Source: a virus
Direction: 5' to 3' (one strand)
Length of the DNA stretch: 64,000 nucleotides
Virus record (IMG/VR): IMGVR_UViG_3300025759_000064
Coordinates: 32,001 to 96,000 of that record
Shown: positions 926 through 22,789 of the stretch, piece by piece
Layout of the letters: the number at the start of each line of letters is the position of its first letter
How positions within the stretch are numbered: position 1 is the first letter of the stretch
The notes under the pieces: generated by a model
Database searches by the model: none
What the model was told of the DNA's origin: nothing
What the model saw: the letters and a program-made list of their open reading frames with translations, nothing else
Position numbers and translations under genes: made by a program

Positions 926-936
926 GACATTCCCTC

Positions 937-1083: not shown

Positions 1084-1085
1084 TC

Positions 1086-1819: not shown

Positions 1820-1828
1820 TCTAAAGCC

Positions 1829-2206: not shown

Positions 2207-2231
2207 TTGCGTGTATGCGATGCTACTTTAA

Positions 2232-3962: not shown

Positions 3963-3963
3963 A

Positions 3964-5106: not shown

Positions 5107-5194
5107 TTTAAGAACTCCAGTACACCCAATTCTCTATCCAAAAAGTATTATTTTCCCATTCATCTTTCATTATTGTATCATTCATCTTCTTCAC

Positions 5195-6676: not shown

Positions 6677-7338
6677 AAATACTCCTGTCGTAAAGCATTC
6701 ATTGGATGGTAATTATTACTATCATTAAACCAATTTTGGTCTTTACTCTCCTGTCGTAGAGATTGCATAGCAGCATTAGTCGGTGACGGTGACTCTTCTT
6801 CTGTAAACTCATCGTCTACTATCTGACGAGGAGGTGGTAATTGTTTTGGAGATGCGATTGTAGATACAGTAGTATTATTCTCAGGTGTACCCATTCCTTT
6901 CCCTCTTCTTACCCCGATTTGTGCTCCTAAAGTAGTAGAATACGGTTGTGCGGTTCGCCCCCCAGTATAAGCAGCAGTACCTATATTCGCCATCCCACTA
7001 AAGTCAAGCGGTTCACCACTAGAACTCAAATTGTAAAATGTGCTAAGACCGCCTAACCCAGCACCTGCATATAGACCCGCTCTGCCTAATCTTTTAGCCC
7101 ATTTTTCTCCATGTTTACCTTGTTCGACAGTGGCAGTACCATCTGTGGGTAATGCTCCGGGCGATGTAACGTTGCCCTGTTTGTCATACGTTCCATAAAC
7201 TGCATCCTCAGGTGTAACCCAATTTGGTAGATTATACATGACATTACCAAAACCACCTCCCGATTGACCACCACCCATCATAAAGGCTGACGATGGATTA
7301 GCACCAGCGTCTTTTCTAATAACGTAAACTTTACCCAT
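6673..7338 (-). CDS. Gly-rich putative internal virion/ejection protein
   Basis: 221 aa with a glycine-zipper-like hydrophobic stretch GLYAGAGLGGLSTF; late operon. Confidence 0.5.
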   Translation of the reverse strand: MGKVYVIRKDAGANPSSAFMMGGGQSGGGFGNVMYNLPNWVTPEDAVYGTYDKQGNVTSPGALPTDGTATVEQGKHGEKWAKRLGRAGLYAGAGLGGLSTFYNLSSSGEPLDFSGMANIGTAAYTGGRTAQPYSTTLGAQIGVRRGKGMGTPENNTTVSTIASPKQLPPPRQIVDDEFTEEESPSPTNAAMQSLRQESKDQNWFNDSNNYHPMNALRQEYL

Positions 7339-9765
7339 TTAGACACCCCCGAATGAAACCTTGACCACTTTAACTACTCTATCGGAATAGCCGTATGTCT
7401 TAGATATTCTCTCCCAATCGCCTTTAGTGTTTAATATTGTACTAACATCCATAGATGTGATGTCTAGCATTTTCGCTAAGTAAAGAATGTCTGTAATAGA
7501 ATCTACGCTTAAATTATTAGAAGGTAAATGCTTGATAATTTCATCATCTTTTCGAGCATCTTCTATTTGTAATATTTCTACTGCTTTAATTAGTCTATCC
7601 ATGGCGGCATTATGCCCATCTTTACTTTTAGTAGGATAGTCAGAAAGAAAACGTTGGTAGGGGTCACCCATATTTTGTTGAAACTCTCGTTGTCTCTGAG
7701 AAGATACTACACCAACTGGTGGTACTTGGGTTTCTCCGGGGTAAAGCACTTGCGCTTGCTGAGGATGGTATTGTGGTCGAGGTAATCTAGACATTACATT
7801 TTGTACTGTTTCAGGAGACGCATAACCAAACTTTGCTCTCATTTGTTGGTCAGGAGTTATTTTTTTATTTGCAACTAATTGACGAAAGTGTTCTGTATTT
7901 GGGTCTACTTGCAATTGTGCTCTTCTTGCAGCATCGCTTAGTGGTGGTGGCGCACCACTAGTTGCAGCCGGAGGTGCACCGCCGGAAACTGGAACAGGTG
8001 CACCGGATATACCTTTTTCTTTACCCGGTTGTGGTTTTAATGTGGTTTCTTCGGGTTGCATAGATGCGCCGACTGGTGACATAGATGATGTCATGTCTGA
8101 ATATCTAATGTGTTCTGGCACACCTAATTGCCCCCTATCTTCGTGTGTACCTCCTTGAAGTATATTGTCTACAATTGGTTGTAATTGCTGTAATTCTTCT
8201 TGTGAAGGTATTTCTTTTCTTTCATGTCCCCCCGCTATGGTGTGGCTATGAAACAAATGGTCTAGCATTATTTTTACATTAGGCGCAGCCGCTCTTGTTT
8301 CAGGAGTATCATACAATCTAATTTTTGCCGCTTTCAAATCTTCGGGCGATAAATCATCTTCTGCATGATTGATTCCCTGAGATGCTGCAAGCACAACATT
8401 ACTCCATGCGTCTTTTGCTCTATTATGATGACCTATACCTCCTCTTACTTGATGTTGCTTATACGCTTCAATTTTTTCAGTATGGCTCATAAAATGGTCA
8501 AGCCCTTTTCCTTCTTCTGCTGTATCTCCATATCTCTGCCCATATAGATGATTCATTTTTCCAACAGTTTGACCTGCTTGTTTTATACTCCCATCTTCAT
8601 TAAACTTAGGATTTCTATTTTCACCGTAAACTGCTTGAAACGCTGGAAACTGAGATAAATAATTAGCCGCTTCTAATTGTCCTTGAGGTGTTTGTAATAA
8701 TACTTTTAGCGGCTTACCGTTTATTTCACCGGGTATATTTGCTAAATGTTTCATAGCCCCTGCGCTATCAACTATCAAGTTATTAACAACCCCTTCTCTA
8801 TTTTTCCCAGTTACTAAAGCCATGTGATGAAGAAAACTATCTACTGTTTGTTTTCTTGTTTGTCTTTTTCCACCCGGTGCTGCATCAATTTGAGGTATGT
8901 AGTAAACGTTAGGATAATGATGGGCTATTCCCCAAGATGTAATATTTTGAAAGGCTCTACTATCAGGTATTCTACTACCCCATTTTAATCTTTGACTTCC
9001 GTGTAATCTATCACCATCTAATTTACCTGAGTCTATCGAATTAGCACCAAACTGCATCCCACCTTTTCCATCAGGAACTAAATGTAATCTATGTGGTTTT
9101 ACATAAGGTTTCTTTACCCAACTATGTTTTTGCGGATTAGGATGTCCCAGTTGTGCCATAACTTCTCCAAGTTGTTTATTGAAAGGTATAGCATAAGATT
9201 CTAGATAAGTGCCACTTCTATGATTATCGCCGTGTCTATTAGTATACGTTGTAATTAAATTACCATCTTGAGTATAATTACTTCTTACTCTATGGTCTTG
9301 TTCCGTTAATGGTGCTAAATGCATTTTTCTCCAACCAACGCTATCTACATTAGGTAAATGATTGTCTTCTTTATGGTTTTGATTATGCATATCTATGGCT
9401 TTTTGAATTACATCTTTTGCTGGCGCTTTTATTCCATGTTCTAACAAAGAGTCCCCAACTGCACGTATTATTCCGTCAATACCATGCATGTGTTCTCCGC
9501 CGGATTCATCAGCGTATATTTGTTCTCCATGCATACCTGTTTTCCAATCACCGGGAAAAACGTGACCCATTCCGGGCACCCCCGTTTCTTCTTCCGAGTG
9601 AGCGCCAGTGTGAGCAAACGCTGGAATATCAGGCATATTTGGGTCTCGGTTATGAGCCTCAGGCGGTGGGAATCTTAGAGGATTCATTTTACCTGCAAAT
9701 AAACTATAATTACCATCGCCCTTTCTAAGTAGAAGAGATTTCATAATTATAGAGGATTTAATCAT
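7339..9765 (-). CDS. Large His/Pro/Gln-rich putative virion protein
   Basis: 808-aa ORF in the late operon; no recognisable catalytic motif. Confidence 0.6.
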   Translation of the reverse strand: MIKSSIIMKSLLLRKGDGNYSLFAGKMNPLRFPPPEAHNRDPNMPDIPAFAHTGAHSEEETGVPGMGHVFPGDWKTGMHGEQIYADESGGEHMHGIDGIIRAVGDSLLEHGIKAPAKDVIQKAIDMHNQNHKEDNHLPNVDSVGWRKMHLAPLTEQDHRVRSNYTQDGNLITTYTNRHGDNHRSGTYLESYAIPFNKQLGEVMAQLGHPNPQKHSWVKKPYVKPHRLHLVPDGKGGMQFGANSIDSGKLDGDRLHGSQRLKWGSRIPDSRAFQNITSWGIAHHYPNVYYIPQIDAAPGGKRQTRKQTVDSFLHHMALVTGKNREGVVNNLIVDSAGAMKHLANIPGEINGKPLKVLLQTPQGQLEAANYLSQFPAFQAVYGENRNPKFNEDGSIKQAGQTVGKMNHLYGQRYGDTAEEGKGLDHFMSHTEKIEAYKQHQVRGGIGHHNRAKDAWSNVVLAASQGINHAEDDLSPEDLKAAKIRLYDTPETRAAAPNVKIMLDHLFHSHTIAGGHERKEIPSQEELQQLQPIVDNILQGGTHEDRGQLGVPEHIRYSDMTSSMSPVGASMQPEETTLKPQPGKEKGISGAPVPVSGGAPPAATSGAPPPLSDAARRAQLQVDPNTEHFRQLVANKKITPDQQMRAKFGYASPETVQNVMSRLPRPQYHPQQAQVLYPGETQVPPVGVVSSQRQREFQQNMGDPYQRFLSDYPTKSKDGHNAAMDRLIKAVEILQIEDARKDDEIIKHLPSNNLSVDSITDILYLAKMLDITSMDVSTILNTKGDWERISKTYGYSDRVVKVVKVSFGGV

Positions 9766-11642
9766 GGAGTTCTACCGCCTCGACTTGTTAAGTGGTCTAA
9801 AGGGTTGATTCCAAAAGTACGAGGGTCATTAGTTGCATCTTCCGTTGCACCTTCCGGCCTAGTAGTTTCTTTAGTGGGCGCATTATTATGCGCTGGTAAA
9901 TTACTAGCAGAACCTACGTTTGAATCACCTTTACCTTTTTTCTTGGTTTCTTTTCTTTTCATCGCTCTTCGAGCGTCGTTAACGAGTTGGCGAAGTTCGG
10001 CCATGTCATAGTATGATAGTCCCCGCTTTTGTAATTCGCTACCTTCTCCAACTTCACTAGTCATCACAGGTGCACCTTGTATAGCAGAACTAGGTAATCT
10101 AGGTCTGTAAGTTGGACTCTGACCGGACATACCCTGAACACCAACGCCCATTCTTGGTTGCGACATTACAGGTGGACTAGGTATACTAGGCGATGGTAAT
10201 GTAGCCCTGCGCGGTGAAGATGGGGGCATTAGTGGTGGTGGTCTAATAGACCTAAGTGCAGGTCTTCTCATTTGTTGCGCTTGTCCGGGTAGTAAACTTT
10301 GCAATGTACCACCGCCAGTCAAACCTGCTTTGTAAGAACGTGCACCGAATCTTGACGGTGTAGATGAAACGGTTCGTATGTTACCTAAACGCTTTCGTGC
10401 CTCAGATTGACCGAGGTATTGTCTGTATCTTTGTACATCTTTAGACATAGGTTGTTTAGTTTTTACACCCCTGTGAGACATTTCGACAGCAAGATGCGCT
10501 CTACTTAATCCAGTTTTCTTCCCACCAGCAATACCACGCATTCTAGCCTTGGCTCTTCTAGATGTAGCACTGCCGGGTGTCATTCCGCCCGGTGGTCTCT
10601 TGAACTCACCAGTTGAAGGTCGCCATTTCTTCTGCCTTTCTTTATGTGCTTTTCTTGCTTTTGCCCCTTTCTTTCTTTTCGGCTTTTTACCTACAAAGCC
10701 CTGTCTCTCGCTTTTGAGTAATTGAAATGCTATTTCTATGGGATTACCTTTCAAATCACCCATCATTGACTGGTCAAAAGACGGTTGTGAGTTTTTATGT
10801 TTCAACGCTTTCAGAGTAGCCATGTACATACTCATATTAATCACTGCTAAATCTTCGTGATTCATGTCGTGATAATTAGTTTGATTTCTCATATTTTGTA
10901 AAAGGTTATTAGCAGGGTCTGACAATTGCCTTGGAGCACCTCGCGGAGAACGACTCATCACCATGTAATCATGTAATAGTTTCAAATCACTTTCAGTTTC
11001 ACGCAATTGAGGCTCAAATGCCGCAACACCTTCATTGCTTCTTGTCAACTCATTTACAGCATCGTCATGGTCTTGTACCATTGGATGATTTACATTCATG
11101 TGTAAGAGTGGATATCTGTTTTCATCAAATGAGTTACCAAACATACTCATCTCATTTATATCACCATCTAAATATGACTGTAAATGTTCATCTTTGTATG
11201 CTTTTAATAATTGGAATGCTATTTCCATAGGTTCTCCCATGGCAAAGTTCTGCCCTCCGGCAAAACCCGGCCCTCTAGCCTGATTTGCTAAACTTGTAAG
11301 TGCGCCGTAATTACCCGGAGTACCAGTCATCAAAGATGGCTCTAACTCATTATCAAACTTAGTAGGTTGTAAATCTTCATCTTCATCTTCAACGGCAGGT
11401 AAGTCAGCAGTTGTAATAGAAAGATGTTTTAATCGCTTCATTTCATTTGCTCTATCTTTACGTTCTTGTTTTTTACGGTCAATACGAGCATCACGATGTT
11501 CTGTATCTTCTCCGCCGTATGCACCTTCTTCTTCGTGATTTGCGCGGAACATGTGAGAAGATTCACTTCTCGGTCCATACATTCGCGTATCGCTACCCGT
11601 ACTTGTCATACCTGATTTTAGAATACGCACAGGTTTACTCAT
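9762..11642 (-). CDS. Large low-complexity basic putative virion polyprotein with two PxEIAFQLLK repeats
   Basis: ORF track gives 9762..11657; ATG at 11642 preferred (GGGGG SD). Motif copies at 11202-11231 and 10713-10742. Confidence 0.65.
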   Translation of the reverse strand: MSKPVRILKSGMTSTGSDTRMYGPRSESSHMFRANHEEEGAYGGEDTEHRDARIDRKKQERKDRANEMKRLKHLSITTADLPAVEDEDEDLQPTKFDNELEPSLMTGTPGNYGALTSLANQARGPGFAGGQNFAMGEPMEIAFQLLKAYKDEHLQSYLDGDINEMSMFGNSFDENRYPLLHMNVNHPMVQDHDDAVNELTRSNEGVAAFEPQLRETESDLKLLHDYMVMSRSPRGAPRQLSDPANNLLQNMRNQTNYHDMNHEDLAVINMSMYMATLKALKHKNSQPSFDQSMMGDLKGNPIEIAFQLLKSERQGFVGKKPKRKKGAKARKAHKERQKKWRPSTGEFKRPPGGMTPGSATSRRAKARMRGIAGGKKTGLSRAHLAVEMSHRGVKTKQPMSKDVQRYRQYLGQSEARKRLGNIRTVSSTPSRFGARSYKAGLTGGGTLQSLLPGQAQQMRRPALRSIRPPPLMPPSSPRRATLPSPSIPSPPVMSQPRMGVGVQGMSGQSPTYRPRLPSSAIQGAPVMTSEVGEGSELQKRGLSYYDMAELRQLVNDARRAMKRKETKKKGKGDSNVGSASNLPAHNNAPTKETTRPEGATEDATNDPRTFGINPLDHLTSRGGRTP

Positions 11643-12039
11643 GTTGAACCCCCGCAAAATTAAATGACGTTAACATAACAAGTTTTCCGATATTACGATA
11701 AAACAAAGGAACGGTAGATGGGGTAGTAAACTTTGTACCCATTTCTTCACAGTGTTCTAAATAATTATAGCAACTATGACGTATTTGTTCTCTTAACGGT
11801 AAAACAATTTCAGGTTCATCAGTATCATCTAATTGTTTCACACATTCTATAATATGCATTAAACTATCTTCATTAACTAGGACATTGGCTTCTTTGAATG
11901 CATGGTATCTAAAACGTTCTGTTACCTTGACACAATAATCAAAGAACAAAGGATATTGTGATTTTTCCATATTTTCACCCGATAAGAATGAAAGATAGCC
12001 CGGATGCTGTGTTTGCATTAAATCAACCACAGGTATCAC
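11635..12039 (-). CDS. Hypothetical protein
   Basis: 134-aa ORF, GTGA-coupled to the upstream gene. Confidence 0.6.
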   Translation of the reverse strand: MIPVVDLMQTQHPGYLSFLSGENMEKSQYPLFFDYCVKVTERFRYHAFKEANVLVNEDSLMHIIECVKQLDDTDEPEIVLPLREQIRHSCYNYLEHCEEMGTKFTTPSTVPLFYRNIGKLVMLTSFNFAGVQHE

Positions 12040-12719
12040 AGCACTTCCTCCATCTCTGCTTGTAATTTACTTTTAATTCTCTTCCAACTATCAGGACTTT
12101 CTTTTGCAAGTTCAACTTTTAGAATATTGATAGTTTGATTAACTTGTGTACCATCTGTTTGTGTACCCCATTTATCTTGAAAGCCAGTTAAATCTTTTAT
12201 TGATTCTCTTACTTCTTTATGTAAAGTAACTGCATTTCTTACAAAGCCTTCTTCATGCACACTACCTTCTTCCATCAATTCAGACAACTTGTTGTTTAAT
12301 TTTTCAACATTGCTTCTTAAAACAGTTATTTCATTTCCAACCGTAATTGCGACCTCAGTTGCTGCTGACCTTTGAACCAACGGCTGAAAGTGATGTTTCA
12401 TGTGATGATACACAGTAGTCTCCTTAATACCTAGTTCTTCTGCAATTAATTCAGATTGAGTACCATCGGAAAAGAATCGATTTTCATATTCTGCTCTATT
12501 CTCACTTGAACAAATTACGCAAGAAGGGTTTGCGGCCATATGGTATTGACCCATGTGATTACGGTAATGTCGGTCAGCAGTATTAGCCCTCCAACCCATA
12601 TCTTTATCCAACTGTTCACAGGATATTTCGCCACTTTTGATGGCCTCCTCAAGCACACTTCTGTCGTCACTTTGACAGAACGCGCATGAACGTTTCATAA
12701 CTGGCTCTCGCTCAACCAT
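12036..12719 (-). CDS. Tandem Zn-binding HTH protein, candidate terminase small subunit
   Basis: Two repeats of CxxC-HTH-HxxxH followed by a coiled coil; first gene of the operon leading to terL. Confidence 0.45.
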   Translation of the reverse strand: MVEREPVMKRSCAFCQSDDRSVLEEAIKSGEISCEQLDKDMGWRANTADRHYRNHMGQYHMAANPSCVICSSENRAEYENRFFSDGTQSELIAEELGIKETTVYHHMKHHFQPLVQRSAATEVAITVGNEITVLRSNVEKLNNKLSELMEEGSVHEEGFVRNAVTLHKEVRESIKDLTGFQDKWGTQTDGTQVNQTINILKVELAKESPDSWKRIKSKLQAEMEEVL

Positions 12720-12755
12720 GTGTGACCGGAATACTATGTGGTTAATCAGGGTTGC

Positions 12756-13016
12756 TTAGATAAACCGCGTTATTCTCTGATATATAGAGGTCAAGAGTAT
12801 AAAGGAAAAAAATACTCCCACCATATACATTGACATTTCTGATTGGCTAATATCAGCATTCTTGAATATTAAAATCCCCATGAACACAAGTATAGCACTA
12901 ATGAGTTGTACCATTACCATATCTACTATAACTTCTCTTTTTGGAGCAAGCATGTGCATTGACATATCTGCTATTTGTCTAGGTACTGGTACACCGAAAT
13001 TATTACTACCCATCAT
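12756..13016 (-). CDS. Small membrane protein (2 TM)
   Basis: Hydrophobic segments MVMVQLISAILVFMGILIF and MYMVGVFFSFILLTSIY. Confidence 0.7.
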   Translation of the reverse strand: MMGSNNFGVPVPRQIADMSMHMLAPKREVIVDMVMVQLISAILVFMGILIFKNADISQSEMSMYMVGVFFSFILLTSIYQRITRFI

Positions 13017-13660
13017 TATACTCTACCTCCTGTGAGGAAATTACGGAAGAAAGTACCACTACCTTGCGCTACGTTATTTATCAATCCGGGGTCTGCTAAT
13101 GCATTTGTTAATTGACTTTGTAGCATACTTTGTTGAGCATTTTGCAACGTTTGTTGTCTTTGATTATCTGCTTGTGCTATGGTTTGATTTACCATATTAG
13201 TCATAGAGTTCATTTGTGACATTACGTTTTCAGAACTCATAGTCTGTAACTCTGTTGGTAAACTAGCCACATCTAATTTGAATATTCCATTCTCTTCATC
13301 AAAAGTGTAATTAGCATTTTTTAACACATTTAGTAAAGAAAAAGTGTTTATCTGACTAATAACATCTAACAGCATAGGAAATAATTGTGATTGAAGAAAT
13401 CTCTCCACAGGGTAAGAAGTGTTTAACATCGTTAACAAAATCTCTGTATCACTAGGTGGTACAATGGCTTGTTGATTGTAAGGGTCTTGACCAGTAGCAC
13501 CCGCCCACGCTGCGCTTAGAGCACTCGGTTGCTGAGGTTGTTGATACCATTGTTGCGGTGGAGCGGTATATCCACTACCGTAATTTGTGTTAGGCGCTCC
13601 AGTTTGACTTAGATTAAGTGCGCTAGAAGCGGGTTGTTGATTATTCCAATTCATTGTCAT
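13016..13660 (-). CDS. Gln-rich hypothetical protein
   Basis: 214-aa ORF, coupled on both sides. Confidence 0.7.
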   Translation of the reverse strand: MTMNWNNQQPASSALNLSQTGAPNTNYGSGYTAPPQQWYQQPQQPSALSAAWAGATGQDPYNQQAIVPPSDTEILLTMLNTSYPVERFLQSQLFPMLLDVISQINTFSLLNVLKNANYTFDEENGIFKLDVASLPTELQTMSSENVMSQMNSMTNMVNQTIAQADNQRQQTLQNAQQSMLQSQLTNALADPGLINNVAQGSGTFFRNFLTGGRV

Positions 13661-14625
13661 TGCATACCCTCCAACACTGCTTCCGGTATCAACGGAGGGG
13701 GGTTTATGGTTTGAGCCTGTTGGTTTAGAATATCTTGGAATGCAATGTTAGGCGTAGTCATATCTCTAAGTTCTTTTTGAAACATTCTCATATCAAAAGT
13801 AATTGTCGTAATATCATTATCGCCGCTAACTGGATTAACGTAATGTTGCATTGTAATACCTTTACTTTTTCTTACATCTGCTGAAATCTCAGCAAAGAAA
13901 GGTTCGTATTTAGTAATCATAGGATGTATTGGACCTGTCTGCCCAGCAGTAATAGTAGAAACTGGTACAGTAACTATACTGACTCCTCTTTTTATCTTAT
14001 CACGAAATCGACTAGGTTTCATTTCATCTTCAACATCTTGCTGTTCTTCCCATTTACAAAGTAAATGATACAAATGTAAATGTTCAGGACAATAAGTTGC
14101 TCTCATTTTTCTACCACTTGTTACTCCTTCTCTTGCTATGAATGCTTCTGCCTCACCTGTAACTGGATTTTGCCAGTACATATCCCATAGAGTTTTACCA
14201 GTATCTTCATCACTTATTCTAGAATATAAATTATCATGTTGTATTAATTCTTTTACATTACATCCATCAACACAACAGACAGCAGTATCTTTGTTATACA
14301 TATATTTGCTGTGACGGAATAATCTACGAGGGTCAAATATGGAGCGTTTTGTTGGGCTTAATAATTTGTAAGCCTGACGAATATCTTGTTTTCTTGCTTT
14401 GTAAGGATTAGCGTGCCTCGATGGATAGAAGTTAACCTTAGGCACTTCTATGTTCTTTTCCATAGACATTCTTTGCATCTGTTGTTGTGCTGCTGCTTGT
14501 TCCATTAGAGCAGCATGACTAAAATTAGGATTACCTTGTTGTGATAAAGCCATTAATGTAGCATCATTCACTTGACCTAGATTCGGTTGCTGCTGAGAAT
14601 AAAACGGATTCATGTTCATTACCAT
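13657..14625 (-). CDS. Hypothetical protein with a putative Zn site (CCVDGC...YCPEH)
   Basis: ORF track gives 13657..14688; ATG at 14625 preferred (GGAGTGA SD, follows the stop of the AbrB-like gene). Confidence 0.7.
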   Translation of the reverse strand: MVMNMNPFYSQQQPNLGQVNDATLMALSQQGNPNFSHAALMEQAAAQQQMQRMSMEKNIEVPKVNFYPSRHANPYKARKQDIRQAYKLLSPTKRSIFDPRRLFRHSKYMYNKDTAVCCVDGCNVKELIQHDNLYSRISDEDTGKTLWDMYWQNPVTGEAEAFIAREGVTSGRKMRATYCPEHLHLYHLLCKWEEQQDVEDEMKPSRFRDKIKRGVSIVTVPVSTITAGQTGPIHPMITKYEPFFAEISADVRKSKGITMQHYVNPVSGDNDITTITFDMRMFQKELRDMTTPNIAFQDILNQQAQTINPPPLIPEAVLEGMQ

Positions 14626-14630
14626 GCGTA

Positions 14631-14810
14631 TCACTCCTGTGGGCTTACTGAAATAGACATTTCGCCATCTTTTACTATTAATGACCACTCTATTTTAGAG
14701 CCAGCAGACAAACCAAATTGCTCTACTATCCACATAGGAATAGTAGTTCTAAGAGAATTACTAGAGCCTCCTGTGGAGACTAAGGCTGTTGTCGACGTGC
14801 CCTTACCCAT
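14631..14810 (-). CDS. AbrB/MazE/SpoVT-like swapped-hairpin DNA-binding protein (59 aa)
   Basis: Manual translation MGKGTSTTALVSTGGSSNSLRTTIPMWIVEQFGLSAGSKIEWSLIVKDGEMSISVSPQE matches the SLRxTIP..I...GL..G..I.W pattern. Confidence 0.7.
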   Translation of the reverse strand: MGKGTSTTALVSTGGSSNSLRTTIPMWIVEQFGLSAGSKIEWSLIVKDGEMSISVSPQE

Positions 14811-14852
14811 GTCTCTCGCACACCCTACTCATCTAAAAGGTCACTGTTGAGG

Positions 14853-15578
14853 TCAGTAATCTACCATCTCTAATAATGTGTTTTCTACATTCCATCCTAT
14901 ACGTGTTGCCATGAAAGAACGTCTTGTTGGAATACCTGCTTTTTGTAATCTAATTAGGTCTTCTCTAAAAGGGTCAAATATCTTATGTTCTCCAATTCTA
15001 CCTTCTCTCCATAATTGAGCGGCCTTGTTATCAAAATATCTATCCGCTTTATTAGCAACTAGAAGAATCATTTTTGGTGCATACTTTTTCCCTTTTCTCC
15101 AACTTTTCCAATTTCTATATCTATAATTTCTTTCTATTATATTATCTACTAAAAATCTAAATCCACCTATTTGGGTTAAAGCATCGTCGCCACCTTTGAA
15201 AGCCCTATCATCAAACATAAATATCGCATATTCGCATTGTCTAGCGACCATATCATCTATCCAAAGATTCCAATATCTTTCTTCTCCACCTAAATCAGCA
15301 GAGTGAATAACTCTTCTCTCTCCTTCCCAACGCACTCTTTTACGTGTAGGTTTAGGTAAAATATAGCGAGTTATTAATTTGAAATGTTTAGTCCTTTCGT
15401 GTTCAGGTATTTCTTCCATTTCACCGGGCGTAGTCATATATTTGTCTAAAGTAGTTTTACCAACCATAGACGCGCCATATATTCCCACTCTTCTAGATTT
15501 CCAATTATTGTAGGCTTGTTTACCGTATAAGGCTACACCCACTAATATACTGCCGCTTGCCGCAACCATATCAATCAA
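14853..15578 (-). CDS. Ras-superfamily (Arf-like) small GTPase with an N-terminal hydrophobic helix
   Basis: G1 GASMVGKT, G3 DLGGEERYWNLW (compare Arf DVGGQxxxRxxW), G4 NKAD, G5-like MATRIGWNV. Confidence 0.85.
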   Translation of the reverse strand: MIDMVAASGSILVGVALYGKQAYNNWKSRRVGIYGASMVGKTTLDKYMTTPGEMEEIPEHERTKHFKLITRYILPKPTRKRVRWEGERRVIHSADLGGEERYWNLWIDDMVARQCEYAIFMFDDRAFKGGDDALTQIGGFRFLVDNIIERNYRYRNWKSWRKGKKYAPKMILLVANKADRYFDNKAAQLWREGRIGEHKIFDPFREDLIRLQKAGIPTRRSFMATRIGWNVENTLLEMVDY

Positions 15579-15862
15579 CTAAACTTATTTGTTAACCATG
15601 TTCCAAAGTCTGCTACTTTTTGATATACCCATTCAACTGTCATTTCCCATAAGTTCCAATCTGTATTGGCTTCCATTGCAGAAACAGCCATTGCTGCACC
15701 GACAGAACATAATATTGTTCTAATCCAACCCAGTCCCCATTCGTAGGTATTATCTACTGTATTTGCTAAATGCATAGCACGCAGTGTTTCTTCAACTGAA
15801 TCATCACCAACATTGCGAAAAATACGCAATGGAGAAGGAATTAACTGTCCGGGTAGTACCAT
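15575..15862 (-). CDS. Small membrane-associated protein
   Basis: 95 aa; hydrophobic WIRTILCSVGAAMAVSAM and an amphipathic Trp-rich C-terminus. Confidence 0.65.
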   Translation of the reverse strand: MVLPGQLIPSPLRIFRNVGDDSVEETLRAMHLANTVDNTYEWGLGWIRTILCSVGAAMAVSAMEANTDWNLWEMTVEWVYQKVADFGTWLTNKFS

Positions 15863-15873
15863 ACTGCTTTACC

Positions 15874-16539
15874 TCAGGAGGCTTTGTATCTTAAATCCGG
15901 CGTACCGTCTTTCTTTAATCGCTGATTTGTTGGTTGCCCATCTCTTGGTGGTATAGGTAATGTTCGTGGAGGTAAGTTAGACTGGCTTGTCATTGCATCT
16001 ACTGCTCTTTGTGTATTCGACAAACCTAGATTCATCGGTGCTTCTTTTTGTGCAGAATGAGTAGGTACTCCAAATGGATTAGCGGTGTTATGATAATCAC
16101 CAGCGACACCATCGGATATATTACTACCATTAAAGAACTGACTATTTTGCATTATTCTACTAGGGTCTTCTTGCATTAAACGTAATTCATGTTCTAATTG
16201 TAATTCCATTTGTCTTAATTCTAAGTCTGCTCTACGTTGGTCAAAACCCATTTGTTGCTGTCTATACATGTTTTGTCTATTTCTTTGCATTTCAGCAACT
16301 TCTACTTTTTCTTTCATAGATTGTTCAAAGAACATTTTGAATAAGTAATAGGCTATTGTTTGTACTGCGAGCGCACCCATAGCATACGTCATTCCATTAA
16401 TAGTGGAATTAGCATTAGCCCCTGTTGGTAACCATAACCCTGAACTATACACTCCTACTGCTACTCCTACTAACGCAGATTGGGACAAAATTAGCCCTGT
16501 CATTTTCATTTCATTTGTATCTCCGATGTCTCTACTCAT
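15874..16539 (-). CDS. 2-TM membrane protein with a coiled coil and C-terminal KKDGTPDLRYK motif
   Basis: Two N-terminal hydrophobic helices, a Q/E/R coiled coil and a basic terminal motif. Confidence 0.7.
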   Translation of the reverse strand: MSRDIGDTNEMKMTGLILSQSALVGVAVGVYSSGLWLPTGANANSTINGMTYAMGALAVQTIAYYLFKMFFEQSMKEKVEVAEMQRNRQNMYRQQQMGFDQRRADLELRQMELQLEHELRLMQEDPSRIMQNSQFFNGSNISDGVAGDYHNTANPFGVPTHSAQKEAPMNLGLSNTQRAVDAMTSQSNLPPRTLPIPPRDGQPTNQRLKKDGTPDLRYKAS

Positions 16540-16586
16540 ACTGTGACCTCGCTCTAGCCCACGGTGGGGGTCATCTTAAGCCTTAT

Positions 16587-16670
16587 CTGTCCGAATATTC
16601 TAATGTCTTGTATATACATAAAGAATAATATGTACTATTGTATAGATAGACAATCGGAATCATCGGACAG
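16587..16670. repeat. Imperfect palindromic element, copy 1 (homologous to 62905-62978, partly to 26971-27086)
   Basis: CTGTCCGAATATTC...TACATA-N8-TATGTACT..TATAGA..GACAATCGGAATCATCGGACAG. Confidence 0.65.
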
Positions 16671-17136
16671 GCCATATACCTTCAGGTGCATATTTTTGCC
16701 ACATAGATTGAGCCTCAGGTGATTGGTCATTATCAGGGGTTAATGTTTGGTCATAATTAGATAACACTTCTGCCATAGTATCATAGAGATTTTTAGCATA
16801 TCCTCTTTGTCGATAAGGTTGTTCTGTTCTCGCATTCATAACACTGGTAGTGTTTCTATCGCCTAAAGTTCTAGCATTCATTCTATTCCTATCACTAATA
16901 TTCCCAGCGATATTTAATCTAGGTCGTGTTCTTTTCAAAGGTTTACCAAAATAAGTTCCACCGTTTTCTCGCCTTCTAACATCTATGTCTGTTTGTAATA
17001 TTTCATTAGTAACAGGGTCTTGAAAATCAGCAGCCCACGTATCGTGTTCGCCTGATGGTTCAGATGTTACTCTTCTTAATGAATCGGGAATCATAGGCGC
17101 TTTGAGCACAATCCACGCTTGGTCGAAGGCGGTCAT
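16660..17136 (-). CDS. GNAT-family acetyltransferase with AFDxAWxxLK leader
   Basis: Acetyl-CoA motif A YRQRGYAKNLY and C-terminal QSPEAQSMW. Confidence 0.7.
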   Translation of the reverse strand: MTAFDQAWIVLKAPMIPDSLRRVTSEPSGEHDTWAADFQDPVTNEILQTDIDVRRRENGGTYFGKPLKRTRPRLNIAGNISDRNRMNARTLGDRNTTSVMNARTEQPYRQRGYAKNLYDTMAEVLSNYDQTLTPDNDQSPEAQSMWQKYAPEGIWPVR

Positions 17137-17351
17137 TGATTATCACTCCACCAAGTATCTACTTCAGGGTCATTCATCAAATCTTCATTAAAATAATAGA
17201 AATGCTTCTTGTAACAATCATCACATAACATTCTTGGAAAATCAACGCCATCATCAAGTGTATGATTCTGACTGTTTAACAAAGCACCACAATGTGAACA
17301 AGCGCCCACTTCTAATTTTAGCAAAGCCCACGCTTGGTCGAAGGGGTTCAT
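17133..17351 (-). CDS. Small Zn-finger protein with PFDQAWALLK leader
   Basis: CxxC...CxxC; ATG at 17351 (TGATG overlap). Confidence 0.65.
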   Translation of the reverse strand: MNPFDQAWALLKLEVGACSHCGALLNSQNHTLDDGVDFPRMLCDDCYKKHFYYFNEDLMNDPEVDTWWSDNQ

Positions 17352-17710
17352 CAGCAGTTCCACCGTTTGAGCGCTGCGCCCTTCGGTGTTAGTTTTCCAC
17401 CTTTACTGGTCGGTCCTTTGCTCCCACCCATTCTAGCACAGAATGACTTTCTTCTGTTTGCCGCTTTACTACCGGGTTTTAGTGAACTTGGTTTTTTAGT
17501 AACAGGTCTTTTCAAGTTTGCACCTGTCTCTCGCTTGAACTTTGCACGCCCTTTTGCATTTAGACCACCACTTCTGCTATGCCTGTTTGGATTGTAACCG
17601 TGAAATGGTTTTGATTTCTTTTTTGCTTTTTCAAACACAGAATCTAACAGTGCTACTGATGCTTGTTGCATAGGTGTGCAACAGTCACATGTGTCAAATC
17701 CCATAGTCAC
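17351..17710 (-). CDS. Basic protein, DUF6321-like (marine viruses)
   Basis: GGLNAKGRA...NLKRP...RRKSFCARM...LKRWNC signature, recalled from memory. Confidence 0.65.
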   Translation of the reverse strand: MTMGFDTCDCCTPMQQASVALLDSVFEKAKKKSKPFHGYNPNRHSRSGGLNAKGRAKFKRETGANLKRPVTKKPSSLKPGSKAANRRKSFCARMGGSKGPTSKGGKLTPKGAALKRWNC

Positions 17711-18015
17711 CGTAACACACCCACCATCTTAACAATTGTTGGCTTTCCGCCCACACCTTGCTTTTTTGCACGTTTTCTTTTTGTTGCTGCTTGCTTCTGA
17801 CCTGATGACATAGAACCTGATGTTTTTGGCGTTTTGCTTGAAACCTTGATTGATGGTCTGCATTTAGGATAACCTTTACTAGATTTATTTGCTTTACTTC
17901 TACCACACGGAGGATGCTTACCATCTTTAGTACGCGACACATCTACCCATTTTTCTTTGAACCAGCGATTTAGGTTCTTAACTACAAGAGTATCATGGCA
18001 AGTACATCGTGTCAT
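17707..18015 (-). CDS. Basic Cys-containing viral protein (LxRWFKEKWVD..CGR..YPKCRP family)
   Basis: Motif resembles widespread marine virus hypothetical proteins. Confidence 0.65.
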   Translation of the reverse strand: MTRCTCHDTLVVKNLNRWFKEKWVDVSRTKDGKHPPCGRSKANKSSKGYPKCRPSIKVSSKTPKTSGSMSSGQKQAATKRKRAKKQGVGGKPTIVKMVGVLR

Positions 18016-18173
18016 ACTACTCCTACCATTTTCTTAATACTCTTTTGTTTATCCATCAATGCGTAACAAGGACATTTAGGAGCGGATGCTGAACATTGAT
18101 TACCCTCAATCATACAAACGCAAGGCGTTTTACTAGTAGCCCCGCAACAACATTTGTCTTTCTTAAGTTTCAT
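18012..18173 (-). CDS. Small Cys-rich protein (53 aa)
   Basis: Manual translation MKLKKDKCCCGATSKTPCVCMIEGNQCSASAPKCPCYALMDKQKSIKKMVGVV; ATGA-coupled at both ends. Confidence 0.65.
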   Translation of the reverse strand: MKLKKDKCCCGATSKTPCVCMIEGNQCSASAPKCPCYALMDKQKSIKKMVGVV

Positions 18174-18340
18174 TTTTTCTTTTTCCCCTTAAACTTACCA
18201 CGACAATATTGAACAGCCCACCCGTTTGCATACGCAGATGGGTAAACATCGAACTTTTTCTTTGCGGCTGCTTTTCCAGCAGGGCATAGTTTTTTCCAAA
18301 CCGCATCCATACCAACACAATGACCGCATTCGCAACTCAT
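18170..18340 (-). CDS. Small basic protein (LCPAGKAAAK..F.VYPSAYAN family, 56 aa)
   Basis: Manual translation MSCECGHCVGMDAVWKKLCPAGKAAAKKKFDVYPSAYANGWAVQYCRGKFKGKKKK; ATGA-coupled. Confidence 0.7.
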   Translation of the reverse strand: MSCECGHCVGMDAVWKKLCPAGKAAAKKKFDVYPSAYANGWAVQYCRGKFKGKKKK

Positions 18341-19902
18341 TTTTTCACCTTAACCCTGCGAAGTGTACCTTTATTTTTGAAATGCCTTGCTCTATTTGAG
18401 TGTGCACTCTCTAAAGTTAATTTTCCACCTTGCGTGTGGCTGACATCTTTACCACCTTTTCCGTATATGCCCCGCTTCCTACGCTCTGTGTTTAATTGCT
18501 CACGATACTTTACACGCTTAGGTGTCTTTTGATATTGCTTGTCATACTCTAATTTGTGAGCAAATGCTGCTGGCGACTTGCGCTCTTTGAGCAACTGATA
18601 GGCTATGTCCATTGGTTCGCTGGCTAGTTTCCGATTTTTCCACTCAAAACGGGTAGTATATTCAGGATGGTCTTCGGGAAGCAACGACATTGGAGGACGT
18701 TCTTTACTTGGCTCAAGCCGTCTATATTCATTTTCAAAATGTCGTCTGTTCTCCCTTTTTTGTTTTTCATAATACCTATTGAACTCCTTTATTGAATCCC
18801 AATAGTCTTGTTCATTATAATCTTTTATATTTCCATATCCGTATAATCTTTCAGAGCCTTCATCTCGCTCGTATGGTTGGATATTGCTGAAATAATCATA
18901 TAACATATTTTCATCCATATCTTCGTCTTCCTGAATATTTTTAAGCAACTGGAGGGCTATGTCCATTGGACTACCTTTAGTCAATTCGTAGATTTCATCT
19001 TTAGTTTTACCATAAAATAAATTATGTAACTCATCTGCATCCATATCTTCTATCTTTTTTCGTTTAATCGGCTTACCCCAAGGTAAAGGTTTGTCGCTCC
19101 ATCTACTAATTCGGCCACTTGGCCTTCTGTCTGTATTACTAATATTACGACCTAAATTGGGAGTGCCCATCTCTAGTGTTTCGTCTTTATAATGTCGTCG
19201 CAATGGTACTTCAACTAAACTTTCACGTGGAATATTTTCATCATGCTCAATAAACGCTTCTGCTAAATCTTCTTTTGCTTCGTCACTATCTCTTCTGTGC
19301 ACTTTTCCGTATTTATCAAGATTTCCACGTACATAAACTAACTTATCGGGGGCATTATGGGTGTATAAATTATTAATATCTCCCATTGTATTATTTGAAA
19401 CCCAAGTTCCAGCCTTTGCATTTTTTAATCCAGCGAAAAGTTTTCGCGCGCGGGGATGATACTTACCATCTCTATGCGCACCTGCCATATAATACGGTAC
19501 ATTTGATATAGGGTCTTTCCTCCATCTCGAATTAGGGTCTTCCCAAACAGGGTCATTATCATGGGGTATTTCAGGAATCAGTGGTGGAAGTCTTGGGTCA
19601 CCTTCTTCATAGTTTATATTAGAGCCATCTTGCGGTACAGGTTCTCCCGCAGGTCTATGCGCCCCTTGTACACGAACAGCCCTAACGGGGTCCCATCCTT
19701 CCCAACCAGTTGTGTAATCTAATCTAGGGTCATGCATTGGCAACTTTGTTTGATAATTATTTTCAATTGTGTACTCCGGGTGATTTGGAAACAATTGCGC
19801 TCTTCTCGCTTGTTCCATCATATCCATATATTCTTTCGATTCTTTAATAGCCTCTTCATCTTCTAACGATTTTAGAAAAGCCCAAGATTTGTTAAACACC
19901 AT
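18337..19902 (-). CDS. Modular polyprotein: leader, ART-like domain, acidic module, HNH-like basic domain
   Basis: Start MVFNKSWAFLK. AVR...GTWVS...EAFI..IP ART-like pattern. PMDIAxQLLK repeats at 18940-18969 and 18586-18615. C-terminal KDVSH...LE..H.NRAR. Confidence 0.6.
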   Translation of the reverse strand: MVFNKSWAFLKSLEDEEAIKESKEYMDMMEQARRAQLFPNHPEYTIENNYQTKLPMHDPRLDYTTGWEGWDPVRAVRVQGAHRPAGEPVPQDGSNINYEEGDPRLPPLIPEIPHDNDPVWEDPNSRWRKDPISNVPYYMAGAHRDGKYHPRARKLFAGLKNAKAGTWVSNNTMGDINNLYTHNAPDKLVYVRGNLDKYGKVHRRDSDEAKEDLAEAFIEHDENIPRESLVEVPLRRHYKDETLEMGTPNLGRNISNTDRRPSGRISRWSDKPLPWGKPIKRKKIEDMDADELHNLFYGKTKDEIYELTKGSPMDIALQLLKNIQEDEDMDENMLYDYFSNIQPYERDEGSERLYGYGNIKDYNEQDYWDSIKEFNRYYEKQKRENRRHFENEYRRLEPSKERPPMSLLPEDHPEYTTRFEWKNRKLASEPMDIAYQLLKERKSPAAFAHKLEYDKQYQKTPKRVKYREQLNTERRKRGIYGKGGKDVSHTQGGKLTLESAHSNRARHFKNKGTLRRVKVKK

Positions 19903-19903
19903 T

Positions 19904-20122
19904 CTAAATCCATCCTGATGTCCTCTTTGATTGTTGTGTCTTAGGTTGTGACGTAGGTTGAGGCGGATTGGCTTGCATATTTCTTTTAGCATCTGCGTTT
20001 TTAGCCATTATCATGTCTTGTAGAGACATAAAGCGACCTGAGCCGGGAGGATATTCGTGCATATCAATGGGGTCTGCTTTGAGAAATTGCCAAGCCTCAT
20101 TGAATGCGGTCAACCCAATCAC
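19904..20122 (-). CDS. Small protein with AFNEAWQFLK leader
   Basis: 72-aa ORF, coupled. Confidence 0.65.
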   Translation of the reverse strand: MIGLTAFNEAWQFLKADPIDMHEYPPGSGRFMSLQDMIMAKNADAKRNMQANPPQPTSQPKTQQSKRTSGWI

Positions 20123-21264
20123 CTATTTGCAAAAACATCTTTTGGCATACGAGGTCTTGGTTTGTTAGGGTCTGCAAATCGTGGGTCACCCGGTCTAGGC
20201 GCACCACGTGGTTTTCGCATTTCAGGCATACCTTCCGCCATTATTGCAGCCCGTTCCGCTTCATTCATTTCCGCTTGGCGTGCATCTTCATCACCAAACT
20301 CAGGTTTACCGTATGGCGGTCCTAAATCTTCCCCATCATATTCAGGAAAACCTTCATCATCGTATCTACTTGGACCGGGCATACTATCTCTAGTGTAATT
20401 ATTCGCCCCTTTTCTATGTAAATCTTCGTCTATAAAACGTTGAGGAGACATATCAGGAAGATTTCGTGCTCTGACGTGTTCGGGTAAATTAGATATTCTA
20501 AAGTTTTGCTTCAACATTTCAAATGCTTTTTGCATAGGTTTACCCCTGCCGGGGATTCGATGTAGCATTTTTGAATTGATAAGTTCTTGTAATTTTGCCT
20601 CACTTGCTGCTCTTTTACCAAGTTTAGTGTTTTTTAACGCTTCTTGCAAAAATGGGGCATAATCATCCTTAAAATCCCGCACCTCTTTATTAGTTGGGTG
20701 TGTTTGTTGGTATGAGTAAGATTGTGGTGCTTTGGTTCTTCTTTGGTTATCTTTGTTAGCATAAGCATTCATTTGGTCCATAGGGTCATCTACACTTCCA
20801 TATGGCATACTATCGGCGTAGTACTCAGGGTGCATATCTAACGTTGGGGTTTTACCATCACGGTAATCTAATGCACTTTCATTTGCACGAAGATTCAGAT
20901 TTGGCAAGTCTGCATTTTCGTCATTATAACTACCTGATGTCAAATGGGGGTTTTCTTTCATGCGCCTCTGCATCATCCCATATATCGCAGGGTGTATAGT
21001 ACCCGCACCCTCTTGCCTCTCTCCGACATCAGGGCCTTCTCCTTGGTAAGTGATTTCTGCTAGATTGGCTCTGTCATAAGCAGGTTCAAACATTTGATGC
21101 TCAGGTAGCGCTTTCAAGGTCTGCCACGATTTCTTCATAGGCATAGAGCCGTATTTCTTCATGTTCGGTGTAGCGGCATCGGTGGGCTTAGTTTTCATTT
21201 TTGGCCCAATGCTGATAATTACAGCAACGCCCTTTTTCTTTTTCTTGTCTTTCATTTTAATCAC
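20119..21264 (-). CDS. Low-complexity putative virion protein with internal PMxxxW/FxxLK motifs
   Basis: 381 aa; PMKKSWQTLK and PMQKAFEMLK. Confidence 0.65.
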   Translation of the reverse strand: MIKMKDKKKKKGVAVIISIGPKMKTKPTDAATPNMKKYGSMPMKKSWQTLKALPEHQMFEPAYDRANLAEITYQGEGPDVGERQEGAGTIHPAIYGMMQRRMKENPHLTSGSYNDENADLPNLNLRANESALDYRDGKTPTLDMHPEYYADSMPYGSVDDPMDQMNAYANKDNQRRTKAPQSYSYQQTHPTNKEVRDFKDDYAPFLQEALKNTKLGKRAASEAKLQELINSKMLHRIPGRGKPMQKAFEMLKQNFRISNLPEHVRARNLPDMSPQRFIDEDLHRKGANNYTRDSMPGPSRYDDEGFPEYDGEDLGPPYGKPEFGDEDARQAEMNEAERAAIMAEGMPEMRKPRGAPRPGDPRFADPNKPRPRMPKDVFANR

Positions 21265-21266
21265 TT

Positions 21267-21614
21267 TTAATTTTGATATTGTGGATTATTTTGCTGGTAC
21301 GGTGGCCTTTCATGCTCAAATGGGTTTCTTTTAGCCTCAAATGGTTTGGGTTGATGAGGTTGGTAAGGGTTGTAAGGTAGGTTGTTATCATTTGGATTAC
21401 CTTGTCCGTATGGCGCATTTTGCTTCATTCTCTCCATGTACTCGTCCAAAGTTCGCTGTTTACCTTCTTTTGATGGAGAGGGGGCGTAAGGGTTAGGTTG
21501 AGGATTATTTCGGTAAGGTTGGTTAGATGGATTGGAAGGCATTGCTCGGTGGTATAAATAATTCGGGTTAGGTGCGCTTTTCAAAAACGTCCACGCTGTT
21601 TCAAATGCTGTCAT
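21267..21614 (-). CDS. Pro/Asn/Tyr-rich protein with AFETAWTFLK leader
   Basis: 115-aa ORF. Confidence 0.7.
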   Translation of the reverse strand: MTAFETAWTFLKSAPNPNYLYHRAMPSNPSNQPYRNNPQPNPYAPSPSKEGKQRTLDEYMERMKQNAPYGQGNPNDNNLPYNPYQPHQPKPFEAKRNPFEHERPPYQQNNPQYQN

Positions 21615-21874
21615 TCTCCTTGACCCCCTCTAAATGACTCAAACCATTCGGGATGGTTCTGTCTGTAAAAATCAATTATTTTAGCATCTTCTTCGTGGTC
21701 ATCTATTTTTTCACGTAATTTTGAAGCCTTTTGCTTCTTTTTACGGCTATCAGACCTTGTTTTACCAGTTTGATTCAGTGCCTCTTCCATGTAACTTGGC
21801 ATATCGTGCTGCATAGCAACTTGAGAGGAGGGGGACATTTTTAGCACATTTATTGCTGCATCTATTGGATTCAT
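21611..21874 (-). CDS. Small protein with PIDAAINVLK leader variant
   Basis: ATG at 21874 after a GGTGA SD. Confidence 0.65.
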   Translation of the reverse strand: MNPIDAAINVLKMSPSSQVAMQHDMPSYMEEALNQTGKTRSDSRKKKQKASKLREKIDDHEEDAKIIDFYRQNHPEWFESFRGGQGE

Positions 21875-22055
21875 TTTATTCACCTTTTACGCATCGGCGT
21901 GGTAACTACGTGCACCGCTAGTAATGCGATATGTCTAATATGTTACGCTCTATCCTGAGGGCGTGGTGGCTTCCATTCCGCAGGGTCAAGTTGTTGTAAG
22001 TTCTTCTTCTTTCCACATTCATTACCTCAAAAAAAATAAGCAGACTGGTGGGAAT

Positions 22056-22679
22056 ATGGAAGTCACCGCACCTGTTTTGGTTACTAAAGGCGTAGGAGAA
22101 ACAGCGCTAAACTTGGGCGCTCTTGCACTTGCACCATTTACTGGTGGTATGTCGGCAGTTGCCTTAGGAGCAGCAAGAGGCGCACAGGCATTGAGAGCGG
22201 TAAAAGCAGCAAAAGGTGCAAAAACTGCCGTAGGAACTACTCAAGCCGCTAAAACTACTGCTGGTAAAGTTGCAGTTAAAGACCCAATGGCTATGGCAAA
22301 CGCAAGACATGCAGAGCAAATAGCAGAGGCTGGTGAAAGCGGAGGTAGATTAGGTCAATTGCGAAGTAGAGCAGTAACACCAACGGCGGCAGAAGAATTA
22401 GAGGCTGCAACTTCAAATCAAGCAAGAATGAAAGATATAGCAAGCACTACTGATGCAGCAGCAGAAGCGGAAAAAAATCTTGCCGAATTACATGAGCAAC
22501 AAAAAACTGCAACAGATACAGCAGGGGCTGCTGCTGTTGTGGGAGTACAAGGCACAAACGCTGCCGCACAACAAAAACAGGCACAACAAAAAGCCGAAAT
22601 GGAAAGAATAGAAGGATTAGCGGAAGATGCTAGGTCAAAAGCCAGCACCGGAACTGGTGGGAAGGTAGCGGTGGCATGA
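22056..22679 (+). CDS. Ala-rich helical protein with a hydrophobic glycine-zipper segment (ejection-protein-like)
   Basis: ATG at 22056 after GGTGGG; LGALALAPFTGGMSAVALGAA. Confidence 0.65.
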   Translation: MEVTAPVLVTKGVGETALNLGALALAPFTGGMSAVALGAARGAQALRAVKAAKGAKTAVGTTQAAKTTAGKVAVKDPMAMANARHAEQIAEAGESGGRLGQLRSRAVTPTAAEELEAATSNQARMKDIASTTDAAAEAEKNLAELHEQQKTATDTAGAAAVVGVQGTNAAAQQKQAQQKAEMERIEGLAEDARSKASTGTGGKVAVA

Positions 22680-22789
22680 TTGCCATGGCTCTAAAAGGCT
22701 ACATTAAACTGCAATTAGCCCAAATGATACAGCATTTGATTGTCGGCTTAGGACTTGTAGTTGTAGTTACTGTTATACTTTTATCTTAG
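22676..22789 (+). CDS. Tiny single-TM membrane protein (37 aa)
   Basis: Manual translation MIAMALKGYIKLQLAQMIQHLIVGLGLVVVVTVILLS; ATGA-coupled to 22056..22679. Confidence 0.5.
   Translation: MIAMALKGYIKLQLAQMIQHLIVGLGLVVVVTVILLS

Follow-up and report, generated by a model that had tools for sequence, protein, structure and literature searches.

The IMG/VR virus record IMGVR_UViG_3300025759_000064 (110,919 bp, completeness rating 98%) carries, in the 64,000-nucleotide stretch analysed here (positions 32001–96000 of the record; hereafter the window, whose numbering is used unless stated otherwise), a gene for a divergent small GTPase, g3, which lies in a block of seven genes on the minus strand (g1 to g7, 12756–16539). 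We found that five of these genes, encoding a protein with two transmembrane (TM) segments (g1), a small membrane protein (g2), the GTPase (g3), a Cys/His protein (g5), and a Gln-rich protein (g6), form a conserved core, and that the block travels as one unit between three genome contexts, either among late or structural genes or beside a chaperonin-like gene. The reading that we prefer, with a probability of about 35%, is that this cassette is a virus-specific GTP switch that would act on the host cytoplasmic membrane late in infection, as the release (egress or lysis) device or its timer. Among the genes of the record are those for a phage portal, a T4-type large terminase, and an SNF2 helicase, and the related IMG/VR contigs, about 60–115 kb long, come from marine samples. 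By gene content and size, the record fits the magroviruses, tailed viruses of Marine Group II archaea (comparison with PMC5434244).

Conservation and genome contexts of the cassette

An earlier note on this DNA had described 12756–16539 as a separate unit of seven genes. All seven open reading frames (ORFs) are present on the minus strand and are tightly packed, at spacings of −4 to 42 nt; g1 itself is preceded by 120 nt without a gene, and the gene content upstream of it varies between relatives. The boundary at 12756, however, does not hold: g8, g9, and the head genes follow without a gap, so the cassette is not a closed unit in this genome, and five of the seven genes belong to the deep core.

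Close relatives of the GTPase were found on 179 IMG/VR contigs, and synteny was counted in the best 80 loci (63–98% identity). In 80/80, the genes run g1-g2-GTPase-(g4)-g5-g6-g7-g8-(g9), with two large head-module proteins after them. A reverse test was anchored on the terminase gene in the 39 loci with at least 9 kb of upstream sequence; the GTPase lies 8.0–9.7 kb away in all 39, together with g2 and g4–g8, and g1 is present in 37/39.

Two distant lineages keep the five-gene core at 31–39% GTPase identity. In the lineage of contigs L083–L086 (the L086 lineage), the GTPase is 31–35% identical to g3, and a g1 homologue stands in the same position (hidden Markov model E 5e-13); a small membrane protein resembling g2 and the GTPase come next, and a g5 homologue (E 1e-26 to 1e-48) and a Gln-rich protein complete the block. 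It follows a chaperonin-like gene, and its end adjoins recombinase- and nuclease-like genes; on L086, the chaperonin-like gene directly upstream of the cassette (3820–5481) encodes 553 residues and appears, by its own sequence, to be thermosome-type. The other lineage, lineage B, has a GTPase of the P0145 type (33% identical, 140 contigs), with a 2-TM protein, a 73-residue membrane protein, the GTPase, a Cys/His protein, and a Gln-rich protein in 66/66 loci with room for the block. Here the block lies between the major capsid gene plus a SAP-domain protein gene and the tail-tube gene; on contig L174, the SAP-domain protein (PF02037, E 4e-10) is encoded at 5487–5978, between the major capsid gene and the cassette. 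Homology of g5 to its lineage B counterpart is supported by hhalign (probability 91.5%, E 8.7e-7), and the same comparison suggests homology of g6 (probability 65%, E 6e-5). For the divergent GTPases P0157 and P0127, no viral-contig loci were obtained.

The conserved core is accordingly five genes. Both g4 and g8 are confined to the window's lineage, and g7 is absent in lineage B; in the window's genome, this core lies upstream of the terminase gene. The earlier note had allowed that the neighbours might not be conserved with the GTPase, but that objection falls away because the block is kept in 80/80, 39/39, and 66/66 loci.

The same positions bear on a different proposal, namely that the cassette is a membrane-associated virion assembly factor, a platform or checkpoint for head/tail assembly or packaging in which g5 and g6 would be chaperone- or scaffold-like. 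Prohead assembly of T4, which is membrane-initiated, offers a likeness. In the window's genome, the cassette is directly upstream of g8 and the terminase and portal genes, and in lineage B it stands between the capsid and tail-tube genes, as would suit an assembly role; in the L086 lineage, by contrast, it is beside the chaperonin-like gene and ends at recombinase- and nuclease-like genes, not at head genes. The flanking genes cut both ways as well. Proteins with a shared leader, (A/P)F(D/E)xAWxxLK, or with internal PM(D/E)IAxQLLK repeats are encoded on the minus strand on both sides of the cassette (9762–11657 and 16660–25178), and leaders of this capsid-targeting type would favour assembly; yet a regular-expression scan, which returned eight leader sites and three internal repeats, placed none in the cassette proteins. 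The helical and Gln-rich character of g6 is that of many scaffold proteins, whereas a need for a small GTPase in assembly is not known for any tailed virus. On balance, we think an assembly factor unlikely.

g3 is a divergent small GTPase with Arf-like features

The g3 gene (14853–15569, minus strand) encodes 238 residues from ATG 15569, the start found in relatives, as opposed to the listed TTG (frame 14853–15578). Motif conservation was scored in 17 family members, down to 21% identity, and the motifs hold in all three lineages. In G1 (GxxxxGK[ST], 15453–15476), G32, G37, and K38 are invariant and T39 nearly so; in G3 (DxxG, 15285–15296) and G4 (NKxD, 15042–15053), D92, G95, N173, and K174 are invariant and D176 nearly so. 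W103 (15261–15263), also nearly invariant, stands 11 residues after the G3 Asp, which is the spacing of Arf and Sar. Of the Arf switch II signature DxGGQxxxRxxW, the DxGG and the Trp are kept, and the Arg position is variable. The residue after DxGG is Glu in the window virus and Gln (in many relatives), His, Asp, or Ala in the rest of the family.

Library searches place the family at a distance from known GTPases. In Pfam, g3 is under every cut-off, the window protein matching Roc alone (17 bits versus a cut-off of 27); sub-threshold matches among the 17 members are to Roc (7), MMR_HSR1 (6), Arf (4), and GTP_EFTU (4), and the four matches to the Arf model PF00025 (best E 0.0048) are under its curated cut-off. 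When the family profile was compared with the sequences of solved structures, the best match was GerdArfR1 (E 1.3e-7), followed by Arl8A/B and Arl10, and the GerdArfR1 alignment takes in the N-terminal helix, the P-loop, and the DLGGQxxFRNLW segment. GerdArfR1 is an Asgard Arf-related GTPase (PDB 8OUN/8OUM; bioRxiv 10.1101/2024.02.28.582541).

The predicted structure agrees. An AlphaFold2 model of g3 (predicted local distance difference test score [pLDDT] 72, predicted template modelling score 0.73) gave at least 500 Foldseek matches, of which the 50 listed are small GTPases or G-alpha subunits (best E 1e-6). By VIA-align, the model reaches Z scores of up to 13.7 over about 160 residues: Arl10B and Arl2 (13.7 each), Arl8b (13.5), Asgard RagA-like, Arf1 on membrane tubules, and GerdArfR1 (13.1 each), Rag/Gtr (about 12), and G-alpha (about 11.5). 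The margins between the Arf/Arl and the other GTPase matches are small; despite this, the sequence and structure matches agree on an Arf-like affinity. By G1, G3, and G4 and by its modelled fold, g3 is a small GTPase of the Ras superfamily (TRAFAC), with GTP binding and hydrolysis predicted. The earlier description of a small GTPase with complete G1, G3, and G4 is thereby borne out, with Arf/Arl/Sar closest by sequence and fold; of the Arf-type switch II that it named, the DxGG and the Trp are the parts that are kept.

The first 20–25 residues of g3 form a conserved, Gly/Ala-rich, hydrophobic helix (residues 3–23 of the model), followed by aromatic and basic residues. The defining feature of Arf is an N-terminal amphipathic helix that is released onto membranes by the interswitch toggle (bioRxiv 10.1101/2024.02.28.582541). 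The helix of g3 has a Kyte–Doolittle mean of about 1.1 over 19 residues and a hydrophobic moment of about 0.15; with this moderate hydrophobicity and low moment, it is plausibly a membrane-interacting or partner-binding element and neither a typical Arf amphipathic helix nor a canonical TM segment. The N-terminal hydrophobic helix that the earlier note had seen stands, as a helix that is not typical of Arf.

The g3 family appears to be virus-specific. A profile search of 1.84 billion representative proteins returned 86 matches, all full-length relatives or fragments, with no cellular GTPase at E ≤ 0.001. Among prokaryote genomes, taken as one per species, two matches to g3 were found, both on short contigs in alphaproteobacterial metagenome-assembled genomes; because these contigs carry the whole viral cassette, we take them for mis-binned virus. 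Longer forms of the GTPase, such as fusions would give, did not turn up; this is weak evidence.

Two further alternatives turn on the nature of this GTPase. One is a takeover of the host membrane unlinked to release, whether a block to superinfection, an SR-beta-like redirection of targeting or secretion, or the formation of ArvA-like vesicles. A hydrophobic N-terminal anchor joined to an Arf-like domain does resemble SR-beta and Sar1, but no ArvA-like or SR-beta-like protein was detected at significance. Genes for superinfection exclusion are usually variable accessories, not a deeply conserved five-gene core. ArvA itself is a cellular archaeal small GTPase that drives vesicle formation with a Zn-ribbon partner (PMC10927574), and in its operon, too, a Zn-binding protein is encoded one or two genes after the GTPase; the ArvC family PF09845 (DUF2072), however, has no match in the whole 111-kb genome, although control genomes matched. 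A takeover of this kind seems to us rather improbable.

The other alternative gives the GTPase a target outside the membrane, for example translation, the ribosome, or nucleic acid, and takes the membrane genes to be merely co-located. It draws on the strongly basic character of g3 (isoelectric point 9.8), on the sub-threshold matches to MMR_HSR1 and GTP_EFTU, and on g5, which has a basic helix and whose low-confidence model is weakly like winged-helix proteins (Z 3.5–4). The best structure and sequence matches are nevertheless to Arf/Arl and not to translation-factor GTPases; the g2 stop codon lies 5 nt from the GTPase ATG; and strict co-inheritance with membrane proteins, through three lineages and three contexts, argues against chance. 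We consider a non-membrane target very unlikely.

Membrane proteins g1, g2, and g7

The membrane proteins that the earlier note had listed, g1 and g7 with two TM segments and the small g2, were all confirmed to have conserved hydrophobic segments. The 221-residue g1 product (15874–16539, minus strand) has two such segments, a conserved, coiled-coil-like charged helix (RRxDMELRMQEAQLExELRWM), a variable disordered linker, and a conserved C-terminal motif, KKDGTPDLRY, which occurs once in the genome. It has no Pfam, PHROG, or NCBIfam family and no solved relative by profile, and its lineage B counterpart is one by position and architecture alone. A relation of g1 to EMC6_arch was considered and rejected: 2/16 members match that family and 7/16 match DUF350, all below threshold, which we take as generic TM-hairpin similarity.

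The g2 gene (15575–15862, minus strand; 95 residues) encodes one moderately hydrophobic segment, and its N-terminal motif is conserved in relatives as MGRIFKTPxDDSVEETLRAMH. Its slot is filled in both distant lineages by counterparts of like size and architecture, for which homology is without statistical support. The g7 gene (12756–13016, minus strand; 86 residues) encodes two clear TM segments and is present in 80/80 close loci. No counterpart of g7 directly follows the g6-like gene in lineage B; in the L086 lineage, a 2-TM ORF further downstream is at most a candidate counterpart. By size and topology alone, g7 may be called holin-like. Size and TM count of g7, g1, and g2 all fit holins, and no endolysin gene adjoins them. 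The 111-kb genome has few credible membrane proteins, and three of them (g1, g2, and g7) are in the cassette.

Soluble orphans g5 and g6

The g5 gene (13657–14625, minus strand) encodes 322 residues from a conserved ATG at 14625 and directly follows the GTPase gene in every distant-lineage case. Its product has a Gln-rich N-terminus, an invariant VPKVNFYPSRH motif, and the basic helix mentioned above. The earlier note had called it a Zn/Gln-rich protein. Cys117, Cys122, Cys179, His182, His184, and His187 are indeed conserved; in a check of Zn ligands, the three Cys were kept in all three lineages, but lineages differ in how far apart the first two Cys stand, and the L086 lineage is without His after the third Cys, so the site is not fully conserved. 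The model of g5 is poor (pLDDT 58), and its best fold match (Z 4.4) was judged meaningless. Searches gave no solved relative by profile, no fold match, and no Pfam, PHROG, or NCBIfam family, and none of 647 cluster representatives is named. A co-fold of the GTPase with the g5 core, GTP, and Mg scored 0.01, which speaks neither for nor against an interaction.

The 214-residue g6 product (13016–13660, minus strand) is Gln/Asn-rich. With 13% Gln versus 3.5% genome-wide, it is the Gln-rich protein that had been described. Its layout is a disordered N-terminus, a conserved helical core (PPSxTEIL...LPSxLQTxSxEN), then a helix rich in Gln, and a basic, Gly-rich C-terminus. It has no Pfam, PHROG, or NCBIfam family and no match to a solved structure by profile; for g5 and g6 alike, Protein Atlas returned unnamed viral clusters or nothing.

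Lineage-specific genes g4 and g8

Between the GTPase and g5 lies g4 (14631–14810, minus strand), which encodes a 59-residue candidate swapped-hairpin protein of the AbrB/SpoVT type. Its match to MazE_antitoxin (PF04014; E 2.5e-5) scores 24.5 bits, just below the cut-off of 24.7, and the SLRTTIPxWI motif is conserved; g4 is probably a DNA-binding regulator. Of the 80 close loci, 73 have it; the L086 lineage and lineage B do not. The earlier note had placed an AbrB-like regulator in the cassette: the resemblance stands, but g4 is a lineage-specific insertion outside the core.

Downstream of g7, g8 (12036–12719, minus strand; 227 residues) encodes two CxxC...HxxxH motifs, a helix-turn-helix with sub-threshold matches to HTH_20 and GerE, and a long helical tail. 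In the window's lineage, it invariably comes after the cassette and is more conserved (median 67% identity) than the GTPase; it was not found in the distant lineages. It is probably a DNA-binding protein, a late regulator or small-terminase-like, outside the core.

Candidate expression signals

An alignment of the upstream regions of 14–20 relatives revealed a TATA-like element, GCTTAAGATGACC, at 16569–16581 (minus strand), about 40 nt before the g1 ATG, which reads CTTAAGATGACC or CTTTATGATGACC in relatives. It is followed, near the g1 start codon, by a conserved Shine–Dalgarno-like motif, GAGGTCA. Together they look like an archaeal TATA box and a ribosome-binding site and make a candidate cassette promoter. 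Two other explanations of this region were dropped: a shared late promoter would require repeats of the g1 upstream motif in the window, and these are not above chance; and RNAalifold gave no consensus pairs for an RNA hairpin masking the g1 ribosome-binding site. A similar element, CCTTTTAGATGA, lies upstream of g4 (14811–14852, minus strand), and it may be that the AbrB-like gene arrived with a promoter of its own. Four metatranscriptome libraries, from three studies, yielded contigs that overlap parts of the cassette; as contigs only, they are silent on timing, strand, and transcript ends, and DNA carry-over is possible.

Genome setting and earlier literature

The sequencing runs that hold the whole of window positions 11600–17200 are labelled 'freshwater metagenome', whereas the relatives are marine; the source may be estuarine or mislabelled. 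Outside the window, on the minus strand of record positions 1–15220, a single open frame of more than 5,073 codons lies downstream of the tail genes and is cut off by the contig end; it probably encodes a giant fibre or adhesin-like protein. The GenBank phage collection gave no match to the DNA, nor to the GTPase, g5, or g8 protein. GTPase, AbrB, lysis, and membrane genes are not mentioned in PMC5434244 or PMC10160649. A literature search returned no paper joining 'magrovirus' with 'GTPase', and the cassette is described in no searchable paper.

Proposed function in virion release

Under the release reading, the N-terminal helix of the GTPase, with the help of g1 and g2, would keep it at the membrane, and its GTP form would recruit or release g5 and g6. 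Once virions are complete, the assembled complex would deform or permeabilise the membrane and would therefore serve as the release device, or its timer, in a host without a murein wall. Among the facts that speak for it, the block is always in or beside late or structural gene clusters, and the GTPase gene is passed on in a fixed arrangement with those for two or three small membrane proteins (g1, g2, and, in some lineages, g7) and for the soluble orphans g5 and g6. According to a 2024 review, the egress machinery of archaeal tailed viruses is completely uncharacterised (PMC10791045).

Several points weigh against a role in release. Membrane binding, GTP hydrolysis, and timing are all things that we infer, and the placement inside head/tail gene clusters suits an assembly role equally well. 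The catalytic competence of g3 is uncertain because the residue after DxGG varies in the family, and its N-terminal helix is neither a clear TM segment nor amphipathic. Profile–profile comparison gave no support for homology of g1 and g2 to their lineage B counterparts; g5 and g6 are without a recognisable fold or family; and no wall- or S-layer-degrading enzyme is associated with the cassette. That the cassette is specifically a GTP-controlled lysis system of archaeal tailed viruses, in which a membrane-anchored Arf-like GTPase times or drives membrane rupture or scission with its partners, is a proposal that we regard as doubtful.

Beyond the earlier description, the present analysis adds a core of five genes, the three genome contexts, the finding that the AbrB-like gene and g8 are lineage-specific, and the terminase-anchored reverse test. 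It offers a concrete set of five or six candidate genes for the egress of tailed archaeal viruses. It would also extend Arf-like GTPases, so far tied to eukaryotes, Asgard archaea, and the archaeal ArvA system, to viruses of Euryarchaeota, which bears on the origin and spread of GTP-driven membrane remodelling. If the proposal holds, this would be a GTP-controlled lysis system without a bacteriophage counterpart. It would also be a lineage of Arf-type membrane GTPases in prokaryotic viruses, with a bearing on how eukaryotic trafficking originated.

Comparison with known systems

Holin-based lysis cassettes, as in lambda, are located in the late operon ahead of the terminase. The viral cassette shares with phage holin cassettes this placement and its small membrane proteins, which have charged tails and one or two TM segments, but it has no endolysin or spanin and no sequence similarity to them. 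We know of no lysis cassette that contains a GTPase.

SR-beta is likewise an Arf-related GTPase with an N-terminal hydrophobic membrane segment, and it is without the switch II Trp. One member of the viral family has a sub-threshold match to it (E 0.089), and the cassette includes no SR-alpha-like partner.

The likeness of g3 to the Arf family is broader, taking in the small GTPase fold, G1, G3, and G4, the DxGG with Trp at +11, a G5 region of the A-T-x-x-G type, and an N-terminal helix before the core. The viral GTPase differs from Arf in having about 30 extra residues between G1 and G3, no Trp before the G3 Asp, Glu in place of the catalytic Gln, and a helix that is Gly/Ala-rich and hydrophobic, not amphipathic. 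Whereas the Arf family belongs to eukaryotes and Asgard archaea, g3 is encoded by a tailed virus of a euryarchaeon.

The ArvA-ArvB-ArvC operon of Haloferax volcanii (HVO_3014–3012; PMC10927574) resembles the cassette in pairing, in an archaeal setting, an Arf-like GTPase that has a hydrophobic N-terminal helix with a Cys-containing (Zn-type) partner just downstream. Pfam matches of the cassette proteins up to E 1 did not include ArvB (DUF2073), although no dedicated search was made. The role of ArvABC in deforming the archaeal membrane is proven (PMC10927574). The viral cassette is, by sequence, analogous and not homologous to the ArvA system, and the Arv operon is without the integral membrane proteins and the Gln-rich protein of the viral cassette.

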